This document shows, piece after piece, positions 4,235-41,543 of a stretch of 64,000 nt of DNA (position 1 is its first letter; each line of letters starts with the position of its first letter). A model generated the notes under the pieces. It was not told the origin of the DNA. It did no database searches and worked only from the letters and a program-made list of their open reading frames with translations. The stretch comes from Candidatus Hodarchaeota archaeon (GTDB taxonomy: Archaea > Asgardarchaeota > Heimdallarchaeia > Hodarchaeales > Hodarchaeaceae). Where the stretch lies: positions 1-64,000 of the forward strand of contig JAEOTC010000076.1 in NCBI GenBank assembly GCA_016840035.1, written 5' to 3'. A program made the translations under genes and the position numbers.

Positions 4235-4789
4235 GTGGTCATTTTTATGGTCATGTACAGTTGTAAAGTCATATTACTAGGACAGGGTGGCGTAGGTAAA
4301 ACCTCTGTCATCAGGCGATTTGTAGAGCAGGCTTTCAGTCATGATTATAAAACAACGGTTGGTAGTAACTTTTTACTCAAACGACTACAGCTCGATGCCG
4401 AAACACGTATGACAATTCAGATCTGGGATTTGTCAGGCCAAGATAGCTTTAGGAATATTCGCACACAGTATTTCTTGCACTCCCATGGTGGAATCATGGT
4501 ATATGATTTAACACGACCGGAAACACTTGAAAAACTGAATAAATGGCATGTTGATTTTACTGAGAAGGCAGGTGACGTTCCATTAATGCTCTTTGGCAAT
4601 AAGGTTGATTTGAAGGAAGCAAGAGTAGTTAAACCCGAGGCAGGTATTCAAAAAGCGGAGAAGTTTAATGCCACATATTATGAAACCTCCGCTCTTGATG
4701 GAACTAATGTTCAGGAAGCGTTCACTCAGCTAGCTCTCCAGATTATTGCACATATTGATGCTAGAAGAAGTAAAATTGCAAAAAAGTGA
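4235..4789 (+). CDS. Rab-like small GTPase (start may be a downstream ATG)
   Basis: G1 GQGGVGKT; G2 YKTTVG; G3 WDLSGQ; G4 NKVD; G5 ETSA. Confidence 0.92.
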   Translation: MVIFMVMYSCKVILLGQGGVGKTSVIRRFVEQAFSHDYKTTVGSNFLLKRLQLDAETRMTIQIWDLSGQDSFRNIRTQYFLHSHGGIMVYDLTRPETLEKLNKWHVDFTEKAGDVPLMLFGNKVDLKEARVVKPEAGIQKAEKFNATYYETSALDGTNVQEAFTQLALQIIAHIDARRSKIAKK

Positions 4790-5238: not shown

Positions 5239-5997
5239 ATGTCCGAAGGATCGTTAAATGTAAAACCAACGGGGATCACAAATTTCGATAAAATTTTAGG
5301 TGGTGGGTTACCTGCAGGTTGGTTTATTGCATTACGAGGAGGAGCTGGTGTAGGAAAAACAACTCTTGCTATCCAGTTTCTACTTGAAGGAATTCTGAAG
5401 TATCATGATCCAGGTTTGTTAGTCACTTTCAATGAACCATTACCCGCATTGAATGCCATTATGCGAAATTATGGATGGGATTTACAGGGATTACAAGATA
5501 TGGGAGAACTATCCGTCCTAGATTTTAGTTCAACAGAAATGGGGATCATGCAACAAGCTAGCCGACTGCGGGAAGCCTCCCTTGATTATGTTACACAGAA
5601 AATCATAGACGAAGTTAGACGATTAGGTGTCAACCGATTAGTTATCGATCCATTAAACACATTCTCGTTACTCTTCCGAGATTTATTTGAAGTCCGTAAA
5701 GAACTCCATCGTGTAATCGGTATTTTGTGGCAAGAGAAATGTACAACATTAGCTGTGTATGAGAATACTGATGATGCAGTTACTGATGTCCAAAATCCAC
5801 AGTTTTCTACAGAGGATTTCTTATCGTATGGTGTAATCAATCTCCAATATATGCTTGTGAACTCCTCACGAGAACGAGCCATTGAAATTCTGAAAATGCG
5901 TGGTATGAATCACAGTAAACGTGTTCATCCTTTCGCAATAACTACTAAAGGAATTGACATTAAGGTAGACAAACCGATTGATTTTAGTAAAAGATGA
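5239..5997 (+). CDS. Single-domain KaiC-like (RecA superfamily) ATPase
   Basis: PTGI..FDKILGGG; Walker A GGAGVGKT; RLVID; ILKMRG..H. Confidence 0.9.
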   Translation: MSEGSLNVKPTGITNFDKILGGGLPAGWFIALRGGAGVGKTTLAIQFLLEGILKYHDPGLLVTFNEPLPALNAIMRNYGWDLQGLQDMGELSVLDFSSTEMGIMQQASRLREASLDYVTQKIIDEVRRLGVNRLVIDPLNTFSLLFRDLFEVRKELHRVIGILWQEKCTTLAVYENTDDAVTDVQNPQFSTEDFLSYGVINLQYMLVNSSRERAIEILKMRGMNHSKRVHPFAITTKGIDIKVDKPIDFSKR

Positions 5998-6080: not shown

Positions 6081-6869
6081 ATGGAAGAACATCTTAAGAC
6101 TCAAACTTGGAGAATTATTCCCTATTCCCAAAACGATGCCTATCTCAATATGGGTATAGATGAAGCCATCTACCAGCTATATAAAGATCATAAAATTAAT
6201 ACCCTACGGTTATATAGTTGGTACCCGAGCACAGCATCAATTGGTCACCATCAATGTCTAAATGACGAAATAGATTTATCTATGGTTAAGAAACATCAGT
6301 TTCAAGCGGTAAGACGTATTTCTGGTGGAGGTGCCGTTTTTCATGATTCAACGAAAGAATTAACATATTCTGTCGTAACCAATACCGAGTATGTATCGAA
6401 TAAATCCATTGAAGCAAGTTACTATCAGATTGTGAACCTCTTATTCTCTCCCCTTGCCAAACTTGGCATTCTAGTGAATTATGACCAGGTTCACTGCCCA
6501 AGTGTATTTAGTAAAGGCAAGAAAATATCTGGGAATGCTCAAGCTAGATCAGGAAATGTGATTCTCCAGCATGGAACGATTCTCATTGATTATGATCCCG
6601 AATTAATGTATTCTGTTCTTAAAGCTCGTCCAGGGAGGACTAAAACGCAAATGGTACAGTCTGTGTATCAAAAGATTACTACGATACAGGAACAAACACA
6701 AACAACAACGTTTTCTCCTTCCTCCCTAGCAGAATTTATTATTCAAGATTTATTAGAAAGCCATCCTACGACTTTTTCATTGGGGAAATTAACTGAAGAA
6801 GAAAAACAACTCTCAGAGAGATTGACTGAAGAAAGGTATAAATCTGAAGAATGGTTATTTCTCAAGTAG
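6081..6869 (+). CDS. Lipoate-protein ligase family protein (LplA/LipM)
   Basis: NMGIDEA; RRISGGGAVFHD; KKISGNAQ; LQHGT. Confidence 0.9.
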   Translation: MEEHLKTQTWRIIPYSQNDAYLNMGIDEAIYQLYKDHKINTLRLYSWYPSTASIGHHQCLNDEIDLSMVKKHQFQAVRRISGGGAVFHDSTKELTYSVVTNTEYVSNKSIEASYYQIVNLLFSPLAKLGILVNYDQVHCPSVFSKGKKISGNAQARSGNVILQHGTILIDYDPELMYSVLKARPGRTKTQMVQSVYQKITTIQEQTQTTTFSPSSLAEFIIQDLLESHPTTFSLGKLTEEEKQLSERLTEERYKSEEWLFLK

Positions 6870-7824
6870 ATATTCCAACTTGATCCTGAAATTCTTGCTG
6901 AAGATAATAAACTAAAAAATTCTTTGGAAATAAATATCTACCATTTGTTTGATATTTATTCAGCTCTTGGGGGAATGTTTTCTCGAGATGATCCACTACC
7001 GATTCCGCTACCATCCTAGCTAAGGAGAGATCTGATTTATTATCCACAATTATCGCACATAGAAGTGTTTTTTTCTTAACTATTACTATCGAATAATTCT
7101 CAGCAATTAAGGAATCTAATCCCTCAGTAGCTCCCATCATACCTCTGGCAATTTCATCAATTGCATTCAAAAATCCAGGCACAATATCATTATCCATTGC
7201 TGATTTAGGTTGGTTCATAAATAAGTGAGAAGCAATAGGCATACCTGAACGAAGAAAAAGATAAATTCCCTCAATTTTGATATATTTTTTCGACATAGAA
7301 ATCGTTATTTTTTGAGAAAACCAGTTTAATGCCCGATAAATATTCAGGCCTGTTTTAACAGATATCTCGAAAATTTGAAATGATCTAGTAGGACTCTGAT
7401 GTGGTAAGTTCCGAAGCTTAACCTTATCAATTAGCTTGGGCAGTTCCATATGAGTTAAATCCGCCTTATTTGCTAATATCATGAGAGGGGCCTCTGGATT
7501 CCATTCTAGGCATTTCCACAGCCATTCCACCGAAACATCCAGCTTCTCGAGATCGCTCGCATCAATCATAAAGACAATGCCTTGTGAAAGTTTTACATAC
7601 TCTTCCCAAAACATTTCTCGGAATCTTTCCTGACCCCCCAGATCAAACAGCTGAAAAAGTGTGCCTTGAATTTCCAACATTTCGGTATCGAGTCCTGTAG
7701 TCGGAAGAGTTTTGCCAAATTCACCAGTTTGTAATCGTAACACAAAAGATGATTTTCCTGCAAATTCTAACCCGACGATAACAATTGGAATCCGTTTTCT
7801 GGGAAGATATTGCACGTTGTACAC
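6862..7824 (-). CDS. Arf/Sar-like small GTPase fused to a C-terminal longin-like domain
   Basis: GLEFAGKS; PTTG; FDLGGQ; ANKAD; ISVKTG; C-terminal GIYLFLRSGMPIASH..GFLNAI pattern. Confidence 0.8.
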   Translation of the reverse strand: MYNVQYLPRKRIPIVIVGLEFAGKSSFVLRLQTGEFGKTLPTTGLDTEMLEIQGTLFQLFDLGGQERFREMFWEEYVKLSQGIVFMIDASDLEKLDVSVEWLWKCLEWNPEAPLMILANKADLTHMELPKLIDKVKLRNLPHQSPTRSFQIFEISVKTGLNIYRALNWFSQKITISMSKKYIKIEGIYLFLRSGMPIASHLFMNQPKSAMDNDIVPGFLNAIDEIARGMMGATEGLDSLIAENYSIVIVKKKTLLCAIIVDNKSDLSLARMVAESVVDHLEKTFPQELNKYQTNGRYLFPKNFLVYYLQQEFQDQVGIST

Positions 7825-32482: not shown

Positions 32483-33169
32483 CTAGTTTTGTTTTTCCTC
32501 TATCTTCCAAACACTCTCTCCTTGCCAATCTCGAATTCGCTTAACTGGACTCCCAGCGTAAATCGAATTTGGTTTAAGCACTCTATTTGCAGGGATCACG
32601 GAGTTACTAGCTACAATAACATTATCTTGAATCGTAACTCCAGGTAATATTATGGTTCCTGCTCCTATTGTACAATTTTTACCAATGATTATTCTCTTAC
32701 GAAAAAGTTCCCCCTGTGAAATAGCATGGGCGCCAATAATACACCCAGTTCCGATTGAGGTGTTCTCCCCGATCTCCATTAATTCTACATCCCAGATTCG
32801 TGTATAAATTGCTGCTCCTTTTCCTATTTTTGCACCAAATAATTTATAGAATAATGAGGGGAACATCTGGTTGATAAACATCTTATTTACAAAATAATAT
32901 GCTGTATCGGCCGCAGTCATACCCACACCCCAAAGTATTTGGTCACGGCCAGTTAAAATACCTTCCTCATTTTTCATGAGCATTCTAGCTGACTTATGTA
33001 TAGCTGCTAGAACAAACAAACCAGTAAATAAGGTTAATGTTATAGCAGATATTAAAGACAAGAACAAATTATTGAAAAACAAGTCATTATAAAATAAATC
33101 GAAGTAAAATACACCTACAAAGATAACTGATGCGAGTAAGACGATCTGAAAGAGAACCCAGGCAGCCAT
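32483..33169 (-). CDS. Membrane-bound hexapeptide-repeat acyltransferase
   Basis: Two N-terminal TM helices; IGKNCTIG..ILPGV repeats; YAGSPVK; start placed at ATG 33169. Confidence 0.82.
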   Translation of the reverse strand: MAAWVLFQIVLLASVIFVGVFYFDLFYNDLFFNNLFLSLISAITLTLFTGLFVLAAIHKSARMLMKNEEGILTGRDQILWGVGMTAADTAYYFVNKMFINQMFPSLFYKLFGAKIGKGAAIYTRIWDVELMEIGENTSIGTGCIIGAHAISQGELFRKRIIIGKNCTIGAGTIILPGVTIQDNVIVASNSVIPANRVLKPNSIYAGSPVKRIRDWQGESVWKIEEKQN

Positions 33170-33179
33170 TATGTATCCC

Positions 33180-34838
33180 TTAGATATCAATATTTTTGGA
33201 GGGGGACAAGTGGCCAAAGACCTCTTCTGCGATATCTACCGCTCCATCAAAGACACTTCGTGCTCCATTCCAAGTTGCAAGATATTTGCCGTACTGGGCA
33301 CAAAACTTTGTTTGAAATTCGTGTAAGGCTTTCTTTAATTCTAAATCGTGCTTATTACTGAAAATTACTGCAGAAATTCCACTACTACTATCCTTATCGG
33401 TTATTATAAAGTGATTACCGTGCCTAACTAAATTTAGGTCTCCTTTTTCTCTCATCATTTCAGACATGAATGAGGAGACTGCAGTTAAAGCTCCTGACAA
33501 GAGTGTAAGTTCAATATCCGTATCAAGTTCCTTTTGAAAGGCATAATCAAATAATGGTAATCCCCCTTCTTCAATTACCATTAGTAGGGTAAAATCCAGT
33601 GGTTCATAGCTATCAGTTGTCCAAAATAGGGGGAAAGCAGCAAAAAATGCCAATATGATAAGAACGTATGTTACATAATCTAGATTTTCTAAGAGAGGGA
33701 CCAATAACCAATGCCCTACACCATATCCCGCCCCAAGTCCAAATGCGAGTGAAATAAAACCTAACGCAAAGTAGCGACCTAATCCATCCCGCGGAGAAAG
33801 ATCAGCCCACAAAGAAGAGTCCAAAGTCGGATGAATTAGAGCAAATGAGAATCCAATTGTCAATGCAGAAATTGCGAAACTTAGCTCTGAATGTTCTAAT
33901 CCAAGGATCATGGCAGATAAAACGATACCGTACAAAGCAAGGACCATAAGATTCTTCCTTCCTATTCGATCAGCTATGATTCCAGCGGGTATGACTAGTA
34001 TTAAATCGCCAATTAACACCAAAACCCAGAAAAGCTTGTCAATGGTAAATTCTAATTCCCCAAGTGCGGGAATCTCATAAGTTTCCGAAATATTTAGAAC
34101 AGATCCAATTAAAGGGAAAATAGCGATGGATATACCTAGCATACAATACAATAAGAAGTGAGTACTCAAGTATGCTTGAACAGACCTTCGTCCTACAATT
34201 TTTGTAAATTTGGTGGGCCAAGCATCCGGAATCCAATATTTCAAGTCTCGTGAGAGAACGAAGAAGATAACAGTTAATATAAGTCCTAATATACCAATTC
34301 CAGGAATTATTACAGCCCAGCTATTACTAAGTGGATCCGAAGTAGCAAAATTAGAGGAGATTTCGTCACCAACTACAATACAGATGAGTACTAAGATTAT
34401 AAACATGAATATCGATGCTGAATATGTTTTTCCACGAGCAGTTGTGTCAGTCAAACCTGCGAAGATTGTGCCGCTACTAGTAAGAAGAATGGCAAAGGAA
34501 AAGGCCAAACCTACGAGAGAGAGGGAAAACAATATAGTAGAATTAATAAAAACGATAAATAGAATTGAAGTTATTGACGCACCCAGCATCCCGATTACAA
34601 CACCTTTCTTTAGGAACTCTGGGTGTGAATCAAGGTAATGGCCTGTAAAATACAGTACTAGGATGACAAGAAGAAGAAGGACCCCGAGAATAATAATTCC
34701 AAAACCCATGAAAGGGTTATCTTCCGATTGTTCAACATAATCCAATATATCAAAAGAGTAAATTAGCAATAATGTCGCAGCTAAGCACCATGTGAACGTA
34801 CTGGGGATCAAGATTAGAAAAAATCTTTTTATATTCAT
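33180..34838 (-). CDS. MFS transporter fused to a C-terminal longin-like domain
   Basis: About 12 TM helices; GIIADRIGRK; soluble C-terminus VIEEGGLPLFDY..LLSGALTAVSSF..WNG..VF. Confidence 0.8.
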   Translation of the reverse strand: MNIKRFFLILIPSTFTWCLAATLLLIYSFDILDYVEQSEDNPFMGFGIIILGVLLLLVILVLYFTGHYLDSHPEFLKKGVVIGMLGASITSILFIVFINSTILFSLSLVGLAFSFAILLTSSGTIFAGLTDTTARGKTYSASIFMFIILVLICIVVGDEISSNFATSDPLSNSWAVIIPGIGILGLILTVIFFVLSRDLKYWIPDAWPTKFTKIVGRRSVQAYLSTHFLLYCMLGISIAIFPLIGSVLNISETYEIPALGELEFTIDKLFWVLVLIGDLILVIPAGIIADRIGRKNLMVLALYGIVLSAMILGLEHSELSFAISALTIGFSFALIHPTLDSSLWADLSPRDGLGRYFALGFISLAFGLGAGYGVGHWLLVPLLENLDYVTYVLIILAFFAAFPLFWTTDSYEPLDFTLLMVIEEGGLPLFDYAFQKELDTDIELTLLSGALTAVSSFMSEMMREKGDLNLVRHGNHFIITDKDSSSGISAVIFSNKHDLELKKALHEFQTKFCAQYGKYLATWNGARSVFDGAVDIAEEVFGHLSPSKNIDI

Positions 34839-35058: not shown

Positions 35059-36120
35059 GTGCCTGTAAAAGTGACCATAAACAAAATGTACAACTTACTT
35101 TCGGAACTCGTTGTTATTCCTGGCCCAGTTGGGAGAGAAGAGCAAGTGCAGCAATTTTTAGCTGATAAATGGGAAAAATTCAATCTGAAAACTGAAATAG
35201 ATAGGATAGGAAATCTTTATGGCCATATTTCCGGTGAAGGGCCTCATTGGGCAATCGTATCCCATGCAGATACCATTGGATTTCTAGTGCAACAGATCCT
35301 AACAGACGGTTTCTTAAAGATGGCATTTAACACCGCAGCAACCACACCAGATGCACGTTTTCTTGCAGGATCAACGGTTAGATTTCTTACTGATAACTCA
35401 GAAGAAGTCCTTGGATATTTTGGTTTAAGAAGTGGGCATTTAGCAGGAATTGAGGGAAAGAAAAAACCAATCCTATTTGATGAGATGTTTATCGACTTGG
35501 GAGTAAAATCAAGTGAAGAGGTTACAAATTTAGGCATTGATATTGGTACCCCTGCAGTTTTTAATTCCCCCTTAGTTCAAATTCAAAATAATGTCGTTGG
35601 TCCCTCCATGGATAACCGAGTAGGATCCACAATTCAAACCATTTTAGCAGAAAACTTAATGAAGAAGAAAAACAAACCAAATCTCACGTTAATTTCTACA
35701 GTTCAAGAAGAAATTGGTATGAAGGGAGCTGCTGCTGCAGCTGTAGCTGAAAAAGGTAAGTTTGATGGAGTAATTAATTTGGATGTGGGATTGACAGGAG
35801 ATATTCCATCATCTAAAAACGACTTTCTACCAACTAAGTTGAGTTCTGGACCCATCCTTGTCGTAAAGGACTTTTCCATTCACTATTCACATTCATTGTT
35901 AACTTCACTGGCGAAATTAGCAAAAGAGAAGAATATTCCCGTCCAGAAGGCCGTATTCAAAAATTATAACACTGACGGAATGTATTTCTTTATGAACGGG
36001 CATCCTACCCTAACTGTTTCTATACCGTGTAGATATACACACACAAACTTTGAAACAATTAATTTATCAGACATTCAATATACACTAAAGCTCTTGGAAT
36101 CACTATTTACATCTTCATAA
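35059..36120 (+). CDS. M42 (TET-like) aminopeptidase
   Basis: SHADTIG; DNRVG; QEEIG; RYTH. Confidence 0.88.
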   Translation: MPVKVTINKMYNLLSELVVIPGPVGREEQVQQFLADKWEKFNLKTEIDRIGNLYGHISGEGPHWAIVSHADTIGFLVQQILTDGFLKMAFNTAATTPDARFLAGSTVRFLTDNSEEVLGYFGLRSGHLAGIEGKKKPILFDEMFIDLGVKSSEEVTNLGIDIGTPAVFNSPLVQIQNNVVGPSMDNRVGSTIQTILAENLMKKKNKPNLTLISTVQEEIGMKGAAAAAVAEKGKFDGVINLDVGLTGDIPSSKNDFLPTKLSSGPILVVKDFSIHYSHSLLTSLAKLAKEKNIPVQKAVFKNYNTDGMYFFMNGHPTLTVSIPCRYTHTNFETINLSDIQYTLKLLESLFTSS

Positions 36121-36134
36121 TACCTAATGACCAG

Positions 36135-37853
36135 GTGTGTACGCAAATTATGAATCAGAAGAACGTAATTCTAGTAAAACTAGGTGGAAGTTTAATAACG
36201 TATAAACAAGATGAGGACCGTATCAATAAATATTTATCTGTGATAGATCAATTTCGAGGAGGAACAGCGTCCTTAGAAGATTTAACTACCACAATAGCCC
36301 ATCTCTTAAATACGAGTACGTTGAAAGAAATTTTTAGAACTCTTAACATATATATAAAGAGTAATCCCATGTCAAAAGTTATTATAGTACATGGAGCTGG
36401 ATCCATTGGACATTCTCTTGTATTACACTTGTTGAAATCGGAAACAGACTTAGAATACGTTTATCCGATTATCAAGCTCGCTGTTTCCATTCAGAATCAT
36501 CTCATTGCTGGTTTAGGGATACAATTTGGAATAAACGCAATCTCCTTCTCCTCACATCAAATCATGCTTGGATATCCTACTGATCGAACATCCTCTCCCC
36601 GAATTGATGCAGCTGATCTTTCCACCCTTGAAACAATGATTACGAACACAGATTCTGTTCCAATCTTTTTTGGAGATGTAGGGTTTGCTCAAGGAACACA
36701 CGCGGATCTACCTGGAGAATGGAAGGTTTTTTCTGGAGATTTAATCCCAAATGCACTAGCACGTAGTTTTTCTTACCTGCAAATTGATAAAGCGATCTTT
36801 TTGACACAAGTTCCAGGAAAAATGACTGGGATCTATTCTAAAGATCCATCATTGCCAGACTCTCAGCTGATTCGAAGGATTGAAGTTGGCCCTCGAACAA
36901 ATCGTTACTATAATTCGGAGAATAATGAAATCCACTTTCAGCAAGAGGGTACTCAGTCAAAATTTGATGTAACTGATGCAATGGAAGGGAAACTAAGAAA
37001 TTTAATTGGTTTAGCTCATGAAAACGTTACTAGCTGGGTTATTGGATTCGAGGAATTTGATAAAGCATTACAAGGAGAAAATGTTGGGACAAGAGTCATT
37101 CCCGAGAAGGACCTTAACACCAATGTAGTATTCCTAGGAAGAGGAGATGCATTTGGATCAGGGGGGTATAAGAGCGCATCAATTCTCCTAGAGTTGGAAG
37201 TAAAAACGATATTGTTAGATTGCGGTCCTCATACACTTCAAGCACTCAAAGCATCTGGCAGAGAAACTACTCAAGTTGATTGGATAGTCATTTCTCATTT
37301 TCATGGAGATCATTTTGGGGGGATCCCCTATTTACTCCTAGAATTGACGTTTCAACACCAAAGAACACATCCTTTGAAGATCATTGGCCCTCCAGGAATA
37401 GAGAAAATTGTGAATGATCTTTTTACCGTACTTTATGAACGAGAATCATCAAAAACTCGTCCCTTCCCTATTGAATATACAGAAATTACCCCTGATACAC
37501 CTTATGAGAACAACGGTATTAAAATAAAAGCTTTTTCAATGAACCATACACCAGAGGCACAAGGATATAGAATACAATCGCGTTCGGTTACGATTGCTTA
37601 TACAGGTGATACTGGTTGGACTGAGAACCTTATCCCGTTAATTTCTGACACACAGCTAGCGATATTGGAATGTAATTTCTACCAAAGCCAATTTGAAACC
37701 CATTTAAATTGGCAAGAAGTGCTTAAACTTTATAATCTTGCAGAAAAAACTGCCGTAATTCATCTTGGTGCAGAAATGGTTACAGAGGTTCACAGACTAA
37801 TTGGCCAAAAGGGCCTATTGATTCCACTCGAAGGCCAAATCATCCGAATTTAA
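36135..37853 (+). CDS. Fusion of an isopentenyl-phosphate-kinase-like (AAK) domain and an RNase Z-like MBL hydrolase
   Basis: VKLGGSLIT; HGAGSIGH; GDV; SGD; DVT.AM.GK; then LDCG, SHFHGDH, YTGDT. Confidence 0.82.
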   Translation: MCTQIMNQKNVILVKLGGSLITYKQDEDRINKYLSVIDQFRGGTASLEDLTTTIAHLLNTSTLKEIFRTLNIYIKSNPMSKVIIVHGAGSIGHSLVLHLLKSETDLEYVYPIIKLAVSIQNHLIAGLGIQFGINAISFSSHQIMLGYPTDRTSSPRIDAADLSTLETMITNTDSVPIFFGDVGFAQGTHADLPGEWKVFSGDLIPNALARSFSYLQIDKAIFLTQVPGKMTGIYSKDPSLPDSQLIRRIEVGPRTNRYYNSENNEIHFQQEGTQSKFDVTDAMEGKLRNLIGLAHENVTSWVIGFEEFDKALQGENVGTRVIPEKDLNTNVVFLGRGDAFGSGGYKSASILLELEVKTILLDCGPHTLQALKASGRETTQVDWIVISHFHGDHFGGIPYLLLELTFQHQRTHPLKIIGPPGIEKIVNDLFTVLYERESSKTRPFPIEYTEITPDTPYENNGIKIKAFSMNHTPEAQGYRIQSRSVTIAYTGDTGWTENLIPLISDTQLAILECNFYQSQFETHLNWQEVLKLYNLAEKTAVIHLGAEMVTEVHRLIGQKGLLIPLEGQIIRI

Positions 37854-38344: not shown

Positions 38345-38947
38345 ATGTCGAACTCGGATAAGAACGCAAGTTTTAGGCGGAAAATCATGACAAATAAAGA
38401 AATTAAGCATGTATTAAAAATACTCTTACTTGGGGACGGAGCTGTAGGTAAAACTTCGTTAATTTTGAGATTTATAGAAAATAAATTCAAGGATGAATAT
38501 TCAGTTAGCTTAGGCGTTGATTTTCTAACTAAAACAATTGAATTCATTGATGAAGATGATATTAAGCGAACTGTTTCTCTACAGGTCTGGGATATCGCAG
38601 GACAGGCCCGACATGTCTCCTATTCACATCTATATTTGAAAGGGGCATTAGGTGCTTTCTATGTATTTGATTTAACAAGAAAGGAGACTCTCGCCCATAT
38701 TCAGAATCGTTGGCAACTTCAGGCTCTCAAAGCATCGCCCAACCATCTTGGAATCCTTATTGGAAATAAGGCTGACCTAGTTAAGGAACGAGATATTCCA
38801 AAAACACAATTAAAGAAAATAATTGATAGTATGCACGTCTTTGATTTCATTGAGACCTCCGCGAAGACCGGCAGGAACGTTAACAAGGCTTTCCGAGTGT
38901 TAACCACAGAAATCCTTAACGTAAAACCAAAAAAATTCCTGAAGTGA
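38345..38947 (+). CDS. Rab-like small GTPase
   Basis: GDGAVGKT; SLGVDF; WDIAGQ; GNKAD; ETSAKTG. Confidence 0.92.
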   Translation: MSNSDKNASFRRKIMTNKEIKHVLKILLLGDGAVGKTSLILRFIENKFKDEYSVSLGVDFLTKTIEFIDEDDIKRTVSLQVWDIAGQARHVSYSHLYLKGALGAFYVFDLTRKETLAHIQNRWQLQALKASPNHLGILIGNKADLVKERDIPKTQLKKIIDSMHVFDFIETSAKTGRNVNKAFRVLTTEILNVKPKKFLK

Positions 38948-38951
38948 GAAC

Positions 38952-39722
38952 ATGTCCCCTTTAACTGAATTTAAAGCTGTGAAAGCATTTTTTATTTTTG
39001 AGAAGGATCAAGGTACAACACTCTTCACACGATCATACGAACGAAGCTCTACTGCTCCCGATGCACATCTAGTGGTGGCATTTCTAACCGCAATGTTTTC
39101 CTTTGCTAAAACAACTTCATTAAGTGACCTCCGCGTTGTTGATATGACTGATATTCGGTTTTCTTTTATTGAGAAAAATGGGCTAATTTTTGCAGTTTTA
39201 GTCTCCCCATTAGTATCTCCGCTAGATATCCAATTTAAATTGTCCACTATTGCGAGTTTATTTTTTTCTGACTACGGGGCAAAATTAGAATCAATAGATA
39301 TTGTCGACACGGAAATGTTTTCAAGTTTCAATGATTGTGTGGATGAAGTATTTACTGGGGAAACACGACAGATGCTTAAATCTTCAAAAAATGCGGCACT
39401 GTTTTACCTAAAAAAATTAGTTTCTAAAGAGGAAACGGGGGCGCGTGGTGCAATGATTTTATCTTTCACTGGTGATATACTCTTAGAATATAAGATGGAC
39501 CAACCACGTATGGCTGCTGCTATTCGTATACTAAATGTTGGAACATACATGACAAATCTCCGATATCTAGTTGTAGCTTCGGAGTCAACTCATTTAGTGG
39601 CGTATAAAATAAGTGAAGGATTACTGCTTGCCGTTGATGGTCACCCCTCATATGGATTAGAAGATCTTGTGGTAAATGTTTCAGAAACAGTCAAGCAGAT
39701 TAAGGAAATAATCCCTCATTAG
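38952..39722 (+). CDS. Longin + roadblock-like two-domain protein
   Basis: N-terminal FIFEKDQGTTLF..LVVAFLTAMFSFA; C-terminal GAMILSFTGDIL..LVAYKI..LLLAV. Confidence 0.7.
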   Translation: MSPLTEFKAVKAFFIFEKDQGTTLFTRSYERSSTAPDAHLVVAFLTAMFSFAKTTSLSDLRVVDMTDIRFSFIEKNGLIFAVLVSPLVSPLDIQFKLSTIASLFFSDYGAKLESIDIVDTEMFSSFNDCVDEVFTGETRQMLKSSKNAALFYLKKLVSKEETGARGAMILSFTGDILLEYKMDQPRMAAAIRILNVGTYMTNLRYLVVASESTHLVAYKISEGLLLAVDGHPSYGLEDLVVNVSETVKQIKEIIPH

Positions 39723-39876: not shown

Positions 39877-40353
39877 ATGGAAAATGCTTCTTTTTTTCAA
39901 CAACCCCCATTCAGTGAATTTCCGTTCAATACATTCCCCCAAATAATGGACAAGCTAGAATATCTCGGCCGTGATGAGGAACAAACACCATATGAAATTT
40001 CTCCAGGAACTGACCTGTGCATCAGTGATACATATTATTCATTAGGGTTTTTAACCTTTCTTTGCTCCTTTGGTAGGGTGAAAACCAATGATGGCAAATG
40101 GTTTTTGGATCCCAAAGGAAAACCTATTGCTGAAAAGCCGTATCGGTATGCCTTAATTTCTGATGCAGTCTCAATCCTAAAAGAACTATTGAAGGGAGCC
40201 AAAACTATAAAAGAGCTTGATGAATCGTTATCTACCTTGTCTACGGATGATATAACATTATATCTCAAGATTCTAAGTTTAATTACTCAAAAGGGGAAGG
40301 TTATTCAAGAAGCAAAGGGTTGGGACGCTACCTATGTACTTAAAGATTGGTAA
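39877..40353 (+). CDS. Hypothetical protein, putative winged helix
   Basis: AKTIKELDESL..ITLYLKIL...GKV pattern. Confidence 0.55.
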   Translation: MENASFFQQPPFSEFPFNTFPQIMDKLEYLGRDEEQTPYEISPGTDLCISDTYYSLGFLTFLCSFGRVKTNDGKWFLDPKGKPIAEKPYRYALISDAVSILKELLKGAKTIKELDESLSTLSTDDITLYLKILSLITQKGKVIQEAKGWDATYVLKDW

Positions 40354-40478
40354 GATTAATCTTTGAAGTTCCTCACATTAGCAATACTTACAATCACATT
40401 AGTCTAACTCCTTCAATGTATCCTAGTTCCTTTCAAGAGGAAATAAAAACACAATTTTACTTCAAATTTGGGATTATC

Positions 40479-41543
40479 ATGACCGATGTTGACTTAAATT
40501 CATTAAAACAAACCCAACGCGAACTTTCTGAAATTATTGGAGTCTCAGGATTTGAATTGCCTGTAGTTGAATATATTCAATCCAAAATTGAGAGCTTAGT
40601 TGATAAAGTTTGGATTGATCCCTTAGGTTCATTACTAGCTGTAAAAGAAGGAGAAAATCCTACGGAAAGGATTCTTCTTGATGCGCATGTGGATGAAATT
40701 GGATTTATGATTAGTTATATTGAACCAAAGGGATTTTTACGTTTTGTACCTATCGGAGGATGGGATACTCGAATTTTACTTGGACAATCAGTGAAGATCA
40801 TTGGAAAAAATAACCAGATATATGACGGAATAACGGGTTCTAAACCTCCTCATCTAACAACACAGAAGGAACGAGAAACAGCGGCAAAAATATCTGAGAT
40901 GTATATTGATACAGGAATGTCATCAGAACAGATTAAAGAAGCAGGAATTGATATTGGTTCCGTAGGAACCTTATATGATCCATTTCTTGAATTTCCCAAT
41001 GGTATGATTAGAGGGAAAGCTTTTGATGATAGAACGGGAGTGAATGTCCTGATTCATATCATCAAAGAATTTTCAAAACGAAATCATAATGATTCACTGC
41101 TTTTCAGCTTTACTATGGGAGAGGAAGTAGGAGGACGAGGCGCGGGTCCCGCTGCTTTTTCATTAGATCCAACAATGGCTGTAGCAATTGAAAATACAAC
41201 CGCGGCTGATGTTCCAGGAATTCGGGATTCCGAATGTCCAGCTTATATTGGTCGAGGGCCAGCGATTTCTATCGCAGATCGTTCGATGATTGCGCATGCT
41301 AAAGTCAATAAACGGTTAATTGAGAATGCAAAATACGAAAATATTCCATACCACATGAAAAAGCCAATTTTCGGGGGAACTAATGCTGGAATCATCCATA
41401 AAACACGAGCAGGTATTCCATCCTCCGTTGTTTCTGTACCGTGTCGATATATTCATTCACCAACATCCTTATTATTACTTAAGGATATTTATCACACAGT
41501 ACAGTTGCTATCAGCATTTATTAGAAATCCTAAATCGGTATAA
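40479..41543 (+). CDS. M42 (TET-like) aminopeptidase, second paralog
   Basis: DAHVDEIG; KAFDDR; EEVG; RYIHSP; start placed at ATG 40479. Confidence 0.9.
   Translation: MTDVDLNSLKQTQRELSEIIGVSGFELPVVEYIQSKIESLVDKVWIDPLGSLLAVKEGENPTERILLDAHVDEIGFMISYIEPKGFLRFVPIGGWDTRILLGQSVKIIGKNNQIYDGITGSKPPHLTTQKERETAAKISEMYIDTGMSSEQIKEAGIDIGSVGTLYDPFLEFPNGMIRGKAFDDRTGVNVLIHIIKEFSKRNHNDSLLFSFTMGEEVGGRGAGPAAFSLDPTMAVAIENTTAADVPGIRDSECPAYIGRGPAISIADRSMIAHAKVNKRLIENAKYENIPYHMKKPIFGGTNAGIIHKTRAGIPSSVVSVPCRYIHSPTSLLLLKDIYHTVQLLSAFIRNPKSV

Follow-up and report, generated by a model that had tools for sequence, protein, structure and literature searches.

A transporter of the major facilitator superfamily (MFS) that carries a longin domain at its C-terminal end is encoded in the genome of a Candidatus Hodarchaeota archaeon (GTDB lineage Archaea; Asgardarchaeota; Heimdallarchaeia; Hodarchaeales; Hodarchaeaceae). 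The gene lies on the minus strand of the stretch of DNA that we analysed, hereafter the window, which comprises positions 1-64,000 of contig JAEOTC010000076.1 in assembly GCA_016840035.1; the genome is 4.3 Mb and 87% complete. We put at about an even chance the reading that the protein is a working MFS transporter with a protein-docking longin tail. The architecture is real, and its signalling role is unproven. An earlier note on this DNA had seen in the protein a candidate transceptor for small GTPases, and had named a Foldseek search of the C-terminal domain and the distribution of the fusion among the checks. The MFS body fused to a true longin, and the homology of this longin to GTPase-linked ones, have stood; the GTPase signalling gained no support from the analysis. 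Read from the N-terminal end, the protein consists of a 12-helix MFS fold, a linker and the longin domain, and its parts are the following.

33180..34838, minus strand: MFS-longin fusion gene, a single open reading frame (ORF) of 552 aa in the ORF list, with an ATG start and the stop codon TAA at 33182-33180
33624..34838, minus strand: MFS body, residues 1-405, with 12 transmembrane (TM) helices (AlphaFold2 (AF2) secondary structure, Foldseek, Pfam MFS_1)
33954..33983, minus strand: motif-A-like cytoplasmic loop between TM8 and TM9, GIIADRIGRK, residues 286-295 (conservation in the alignment)
33594..33623, minus strand: tether, residues 406-415 (WTTDSYEPLD), from TM12 to the first longin strand (alignment and AF2)
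33201..33593, minus strand: longin domain, residues 416-546, beta-beta-alpha-beta-beta-beta-alpha-alpha (AF2, Foldseek, VIA-align)

When the tail was folded alone, by AF2 on a 33-row alignment of diverse relatives, the model had a pLDDT of 90.1 and a pTM of 0.84, with strands at positions 4-10, 16-21, 58-61, 64-71 and 76-82 of the isolated domain and helices at 32-50, 87-108 and 115-129. Foldseek returned 60 matches in the PDB at E<=0.001, with solved longins matched over the whole length of the domain. The best was TRAPP Bet5/TRAPPC1 (3cue_C, E 7.8e-6), and the other top matches were 2j3t_C, 7b6d_C, Trs23, Mon1-Ccz1, AP sigma subunits, Ykt6 and Sec22b. A VIA-align comparison with 48,161 representative chains gave the same picture, the top 14 rows all being longin-type domains at Z 11.1-13.1. 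The Sec22b longin came first (Z 13.1, 123 aligned, root mean square deviation 3.1), and next a VAMP7-like longin (13.0), VAMP7 (12.8), synbindin (12.5) and Bet5 (12.4), with Mon1, Ccz1 and Fuzzy (about 11.5) and SRX (11.1-11.2) further down. The longin-like domain that the earlier note had placed at about 33200-33595 is thus borne out by all three methods, with its limits at 33201 and 33593.

Roadblock domains (MglB, LAMTOR and Asgard roadblocks) ranked below the longins in VIA-align, and with shorter alignments of 94-107 residues. A roadblock/LC7 identity was considered for the tail and rejected. The domain begins with a strand, and because it lacks a helix at the N-terminal end and has two at the C-terminal end it is a longin and not a roadblock (the two folds are compared in the available part of PMC10933270). 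At the level of sequence, Pfam placed no family on the last 140 residues at E<=1, with Longin, Sybindin, Sedlin_N and Fuz_longin_1 all included, and a search of the PDB sequences with the tail reached E 1.5 at best.

A word-indexed search found 58 relatives of the protein, mostly from metagenome-assembled genomes labelled as Heimdall- or Hodarchaeales. At least 97% of the query is covered in 48 of them, which are 540-567 aa long, and the other ten are shorter, 320-474 aa, several being labelled as partial or lying on short contigs. In public annotation these proteins are called "MFS transporter", "MFS family permease" or "hypothetical protein", where they are named. The alignment used here holds the query and 40 of the 58 relatives, eight near-duplicate full-length proteins and the ten short ones having been omitted. 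In 38 of these 40 relatives the tail is closer to the query than the TM body is; the mean identity to the query is 69% for the tail as compared to 58% for the body, and the tether reaches 69% as well. The tail is under stronger constraint than the TM body.

When the TM body alone (residues 1-410) was used as query, the same 58 fused or truncated proteins were found, and no tail-less close relative of the body appeared within the sensitivity of the word-indexed search. As judged from these sequences, the fusion is obligate in its family. In a sample of the phylum 141 of 201 genomes gave matches at E<=1e-10. Among the 150 matches listed (159 more lie beyond these), body and tail were matched together only in the GTDB genus and family of the host, in ten of ten genomes including its own. 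Elsewhere in the phylum, again among the matches listed, it was the tail region only (about 410-545) that matched, in a few cases together with the last helices, and the ORFs concerned were about 340 to 1570 aa long. The fusion is conserved, with 58 relatives fused or truncated and the full length kept, among the matches listed, within the genus and family. In many relatives (L005, L007-L020; e.g. L008:6090-7712) the orthologue is immediately preceded, in tandem, by a second MFS-longin gene at 35-42% identity; this tandem paralogue is absent from the window and from the four closest relatives. An ORF of 142 aa at 34210-34638 on the plus strand is antisense to the MFS gene, lies wholly within its conserved coding region and is probably spurious.

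The full-length protein was modelled by AF2 on the 41-row alignment (pLDDT 82.8, pTM 0.82). In the model the first six TM helices are at residues 3-37, 47-71, 73-96, 101-129, 135-161 and 173-195, the last six at 218-247, 266-292, 295-315, 318-340, 353-382 and 386-405, and a small beta hairpin is seen at 253-263. Foldseek gave 413 matches for the whole model in the PDB at E<=0.001. The matches listed are all polytopic membrane transporters and nearly all recognisably MFS, with a TM-score to the target of at most 0.81, and LmrP, YajR, VMAT1/2, GLUT3 and PfHT1 are found among those with names. Since the model has 12 TM helices and the Foldseek matches listed for it are nearly all MFS transporters, the full MFS body that had been claimed is correct. 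The Pfam match to MFS_1 is above the gathering score (46.5 bits as compared to 33.4, E 3.2e-12) and extends over residues 226-410 only.

Motif A of MFS transporters, G-x-x-x-D-R/K-x-G-R-R/K, is located in the cytoplasmic loops TM2-3 and TM8-9. The TM8-9 loop of the protein has the motif-A-like sequence intact, with G286, D290, G293 and K295 invariant in the 41 sequences, and in the TM2-3 loop only G66 and D70 remain of the motif. Polar residues are also kept within the model helices, D340 being invariant and D30, H227, D278 and H336 nearly so, and the cytoplasmic loops R135-G136, D346...R350-D351 and W207-P208-T209 are strongly conserved. The 12 helices and several of the intramembrane polar residues persist down to paralogues at 33-37% identity. 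From this pattern of conservation, the MFS body looks functional.

The neighbour on the downstream side of the gene gives the transporter a possible context.

32483..33169, minus strand: hexapeptide-repeat (LbH) acyltransferase, membrane-anchored, in the same operon (Pfam Hexapep 8e-12)

The ATG of the acyltransferase gene, at 33169, comes 10 nt past the MFS stop codon, and an alternative TTG at 33217 would make the two genes overlap. The product has N-terminal hydrophobic helices, and its best NCBIfam models, those of O-acetyltransferases for lipids or sugars (heptaprenylglyceryl-phosphate O-acetyltransferase, WbbJ, WcaF, Maa and LacA), all score far below their cut-offs. A homologue stands directly downstream on the same strand in ten of the 18 ortholog loci that have downstream flank, and within about 1.5 kb in a further five; the remaining three have none. 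The arrangement suggests that the MFS-longin gene and the acyltransferase gene are co-transcribed.

Some points weigh against a working transporter with a docking tail. The match to MFS_1 leaves out the N-terminal half, in which motif A (TM2-3) is also degenerate, and therefore a loss of transport activity is possible. MFS transporters are usually monomeric. Furthermore, no partner of the tail has been identified. The first of these points would also fit a protein in which the MFS body does not transport at all and serves only to keep a longin platform membrane-bound, or to direct the protein to a membrane domain, and other members of the tail family are indeed anchored by a single helix. A bare anchor would, however, need neither 12 helices nor intramembrane polar residues conserved to paralogues at 33-37% identity, and it would not need an operon with an acyltransferase. 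We consider it quite improbable that the body is an anchor only.

If the protein is instead a working transporter with a docking tail, the position of the tail becomes important. Since MFS topology puts both termini in the cytoplasm, the tail is probably cytoplasmic, and the basic linker between TM6 and TM7 and the motif-A-like TM8-9 loop fit such a location. The tether is flanked in the AF2 model by helix 386-405 and strand 416-422, and over the 41 sequences its D409 and P413 are invariant and W406 and S410 nearly invariant. Within the tail, the densest run of invariant residues in the alignment is helix alpha1 (LLSGAL.AVSSFMSE). In solved longin and roadblock dimers alpha1 is part of the dimer and GTPase-binding face. 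By analogy, the alpha1 face may be where the tail docks a small GTPase or another domain of the longin or roadblock type (for alpha1 at this face, cf. the available part of PMC10933270).

In the reading that we favour, the protein works as a secondary transporter of the MFS, co-transcribed with a membrane-anchored acyltransferase, and the longin tail is held on the conserved 10-residue tether directly beneath the C-terminal six-helix bundle. The tail would then be a protein-docking module, belonging to an Asgard-wide family that is found on many membrane proteins. It would most likely pair with a second longin or with a roadblock domain, which could be that of another copy of the protein or of a soluble partner, and the pairing would create a dimeric platform at the cytoplasmic face of the transporter. 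The short tether could let the conformation of the transporter and the binding of a partner by the tail affect each other.

A tether of only ten conserved residues, together with the strongly conserved cytoplasmic loops, may also suggest that the longin acts in cis, as a plug or latch that docks on the cytoplasmic gate of its own transporter and regulates transport with no outside partner. In Ykt6 and VAMP7 the longin folds back onto the SNARE motif of the same protein, and YajR, an MFS transporter with an extra C-terminal soluble domain, was third in the fold search with the whole model. What speaks against such a latch is the wider family of the tail. In the window, two homologues of the tail are encoded beside, or together with, a small GTPase.

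6862..7824, minus strand: Arf-like GTPase (Pfam Arf 8e-32, residues 8-173), the C-domain of which is the closest relative of the tail in the window (context only)
38345-38947, plus strand: Rab-like GTPase (Pfam Ras 1.1e-40; context only)
38952-39722, plus strand: longin-roadblock protein (weak Pfam Fuz_longin_1 at 0.0032, hhalign to the tail family 94.7%; context only)

Residues 12-107 of the tail match residues 192-291 of the Arf-like protein in BLASTP (E 1e-5, 23% identity). The 38952-39722 product gave no BLASTP match to the tail; its residues 8-136 match the tail-family profile in hhalign at a probability of 94.7% and an E of 5.7e-8. The earlier note had claimed a sequence pattern common to the tail and both GTPase-linked longins, and going by these two matches the pattern is homology and not chance. 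A third small GTPase is encoded in the window at 4265-4744 on the plus strand (Ras-family E 5.2e-47), directly upstream of a KaiC/RecA-like ATPase ORF at 5239-5997 on the same strand; the GTPase gene is about 2 kb from the Arf-like-longin gene.

Outside the window, an exhaustive phmmer search with the tail among 1.84 billion representatives gave 239 matches at E<=0.001, 21 of them at E<=1e-10. The tail domain is usually C-terminal in these relatives, and the host proteins differ widely in length. Pfam was run on 57 of the 150 listed phmmer matches. MFS_1 was found in six of the 57, other proteins had TPR, KaiC, CBS, winged-helix, PKD/CARDB or AAA_31 domains, 35 had no family, and a GTPase domain was present in none of the 57. 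One relative (P0094) reached Fuz_longin_1 at 9.6e-4, below the cut-off. The similarity of the other MFS-longin proteins to the TM body described here is at motif level only (E 0.019, 3e-5 and 0.004), and therefore distinct MFS lineages carry the same kind of tail.

The tail-family profile had 35 matches in the host's own genome, which were classed by ORF extension and a simple hydropathy count. Ten of them are on membrane proteins. Two of these are MFS proteins, three have seven TM helices (365-391 aa), two are polytopic proteins of other kinds, and the last three are giants of 1458-1532 aa that cross the membrane once. The non-membrane members are one Arf-like GTPase fusion and about two dozen soluble proteins. 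The second MFS-longin of the genome, at a contig end, is an orthologue of a dispersed paralogue and 86% identical to those in L021 and L025. The giant proteins (G000:C6:15182-19558, C243:339-4937 and C211:663-5102; 1458-1532 aa each) share one layout, with a signal-like helix at the N-terminal end, a single TM helix near 1190-1244 and then the tail-family longin. On sequence grounds, the tail belongs to an Asgard-wide family.

Since the tail family is shared by unrelated membrane proteins, by soluble ones and by a GTPase, its role is probably a generic docking one and not that of a transporter-specific plug. That the tail is a latch on its own transporter is therefore unlikely in our view.

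A docking tail raises the question of what is docked, and the genes upstream of the MFS-longin gene offer candidates. They are divergent from it, beginning with an M42 aminopeptidase, a kinase-like/MBL fusion and a small ORF, beyond which come the Rab-like GTPase and the longin-roadblock gene listed above.

35059-36120 and 40347-41543, plus strand: M42 aminopeptidase paralogues, about 27% identical, which flank the Rab/longin-roadblock pair
36135-37853, plus strand: protein of 572 aa in which an amino-acid-kinase-like domain (isopentenyl phosphate kinase model 2.1e-21) is fused to an MBL-fold RNase Z-like domain (1.2e-34)

A distance of 3.5 kb separates the MFS gene from the Rab-like/longin-roadblock pair, which is on the opposite strand. 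The pair occurs upstream in 13 of 20 ortholog loci, within about 3.5-6 kb and down to 55% identity. Of the seven loci without it, five have a flank of less than 5 kb or a block that runs off the locus, and L011 and L016 lack the pair. The relatives show the same two-M42 arrangement around the pair and the MFS gene, the kinase-like/MBL fusion is also kept beside the latter, and about ten genes, from the second M42 peptidase to a class-V aminotransferase, form one syntenic block. Over 13 sequences the mean column identity is 78% for the Rab-like GTPase and 82% for the longin-roadblock protein, far above the MFS gene. Because the genomes belong to one lineage and the whole block is conserved, we read the adjacency of the pair as synteny by descent, and it is at most a weak functional hint.

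These neighbours could nevertheless make the protein a transceptor, in which binding or transport of the substrate alters the pairing of the tail with a GTPase-linked longin and so switches a small GTPase, in a manner like that of mTORC1. The candidate partners would be the longin-roadblock protein beside the Rab-like gene or the Arf-like-longin protein, both homologous to the tail, and the presence of the tail family on an Arf-like GTPase, the pair nearby in 13 of the 20 loci and the short conserved tether, which suits conformational coupling, are all consistent with this. The known role of longin dimers is in GTPase regulation, and SLC38A9 with Ragulator is a eukaryotic precedent for a transporter that recruits such a complex. 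PQLC2 with C9orf72-SMCR8-WDR41 is another (PMC12290439, in its available part).

The claim that the transporter reports solute status to Rab or Arf GTPases did not, however, gain specific support from the gene context or from the domains of the tail family. The Rab pair is on the opposite strand with two or three unrelated genes between, and the synteny extends over the entire block of about ten genes. There are 59 Ras-family matches in the genome, and the tail family is not enriched near them: five of 34 non-fused tail-family genes lie within 5 kb of a Ras-family gene as compared to 3.9 expected at random (P 0.36), and three within 1.5 kb as compared to 2.0. Of 12 loci of the dispersed paralogue only two have a Rab-like gene within 8 kb, none of the 57 sampled relatives has a GTPase domain, and the operon partner is an acyltransferase, not a GTPase. 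A switch of this kind seems to us rather unlikely. A 365-aa 7-TM-longin and a 563-aa central-longin protein (G000:C36:6591-9074, G000:C144:5212-8334) were observed about 0.9 kb from Rab-like genes.

In a more specific form, the tail would be the membrane-anchored half of a heterodimeric longin platform, completed by the 38952-39722 product, that acts on the Rab-like GTPase 38345-38947 and is gated by the transporter cycle through the tether. We regard this as very improbable. A complex prediction of the tail with the longin-roadblock protein and the Rab-like GTPase had scores of 0.25 and 0.24 with the mark at 0.32; run without controls, it counts neither way.

The tail was also compared with longins of GTPase-activating proteins (GAPs), and a GAP-longin reading is not favoured. 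The signature of FLCN, NPRL2, SMCR8 and C9orf72 is an adjacent GP at the start of the second strand and a universal catalytic arginine (PMC12290439, in its available part). The adjacent GP is absent from the tail, which has G426-L427-P428 instead, with the G in 41 of 41 sequences and the P in 39. The best candidate for the arginine, R472, is R in 33 of the 41, Q in six and K in two, and it varies across the wider family. The GAP longins also come lower in VIA-align (NPRL2 at Z 9.6, C9orf72-SMCR8 at 8.8 and FLCN-FNIP2 at 8.2).

Most eukaryotic regulators of Rab, Rag and Arf GTPases are built around longin and roadblock dimers, and eukaryotic nutrient sensing couples lysosomal transporters to longin/roadblock platforms. 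Here a covalent transporter-longin fusion is found in Hodarchaeales, an order that is among the archaea most closely related to eukaryotes. The fusion is a defined, expressible object for asking what an archaeal longin binds, and it opens the question of whether membrane transport and GTPase switching were linked before eukaryotes. Even if a GTPase plays no part, the tail family shows the longin fold in general use among Asgard archaea, as the cytoplasmic tail of membrane proteins. Should the heterodimeric platform be true, the protein would represent an archaeal forerunner of the lysosomal transporters that recruit longin/roadblock complexes to switch small GTPases.

Compared with known systems, the tail has the same fold and topology as the eukaryotic longins of TRAPP (Bet5/TRAPPC1 and Trs23/TRAPPC4), Sec22b, VAMP7, Ykt6 and Mon1-Ccz1 (Z 11-13, 117-132 aligned), but the identity is only 9-16% and no Pfam longin model matches it. 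The position differs too, as the tail is the C-terminus of a polytopic transporter, while the longin is N-terminal in the SNAREs and soluble in TRAPP and Mon1-Ccz1. Closer to home, the tail is part of the longin/roadblock expansion of the Asgard archaea: the Roadblock-Longin structure of Lokiarchaeota, 8yqg, matches it at Z 10.8, and the Arf-like-longin protein of the window is a relative in sequence. Asgard fusions to GTPases, to TRAPPC3 and to two-component domains have been described (PMC10933270; 10.1101/2020.10.19.343400), and in the available parts of these two sources no transporter fusion like the MFS-longin is mentioned. We found no description of an MFS-longin fusion in the available parts of the literature covered, which included PMC10933270, 10.1101/2020.10.19.343400, PMC7997004, PMC12290439, PMC13734099, PMC12962969 and 10.1101/2024.02.28.582541; the supplementary architecture tables of the Asgard surveys may list such a fusion.

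YajR of E. coli (3WDO) likewise has a 12-TM MFS body and a small cytoplasmic C-domain, and it ranked third for the whole model with 522 aligned columns. The extra domain of YajR we take not to be a longin, and YajR is the nearest architectural precedent, an MFS transporter with a soluble C-terminal domain. The gene order resembles that of lacY-lacA operons, in which the gene of an MFS permease is followed by that of a hexapeptide (LbH) acetyltransferase, and the models of LacA and Maa match the neighbour at 1.5e-8 and 4.4e-10. These matches are, however, far below the model cut-offs, and the acyltransferase here differs in having N-terminal TM helices. In PQLC2 with C9orf72-SMCR8-WDR41, and in SLC38A9 with Ragulator-Rag, a transporter is physically linked to a longin or roadblock platform, as it may be here. 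PQLC2 and SLC38A9 are not known as MFS proteins, being assigned to the PQ-loop and amino-acid-transporter families. Furthermore, the link in the eukaryotic systems is non-covalent, whereas in the protein described here it is covalent. By analogy, lysosomal transporters with their non-covalent longin/roadblock complexes would be the nearest functional counterpart of the MFS-longin fusion.

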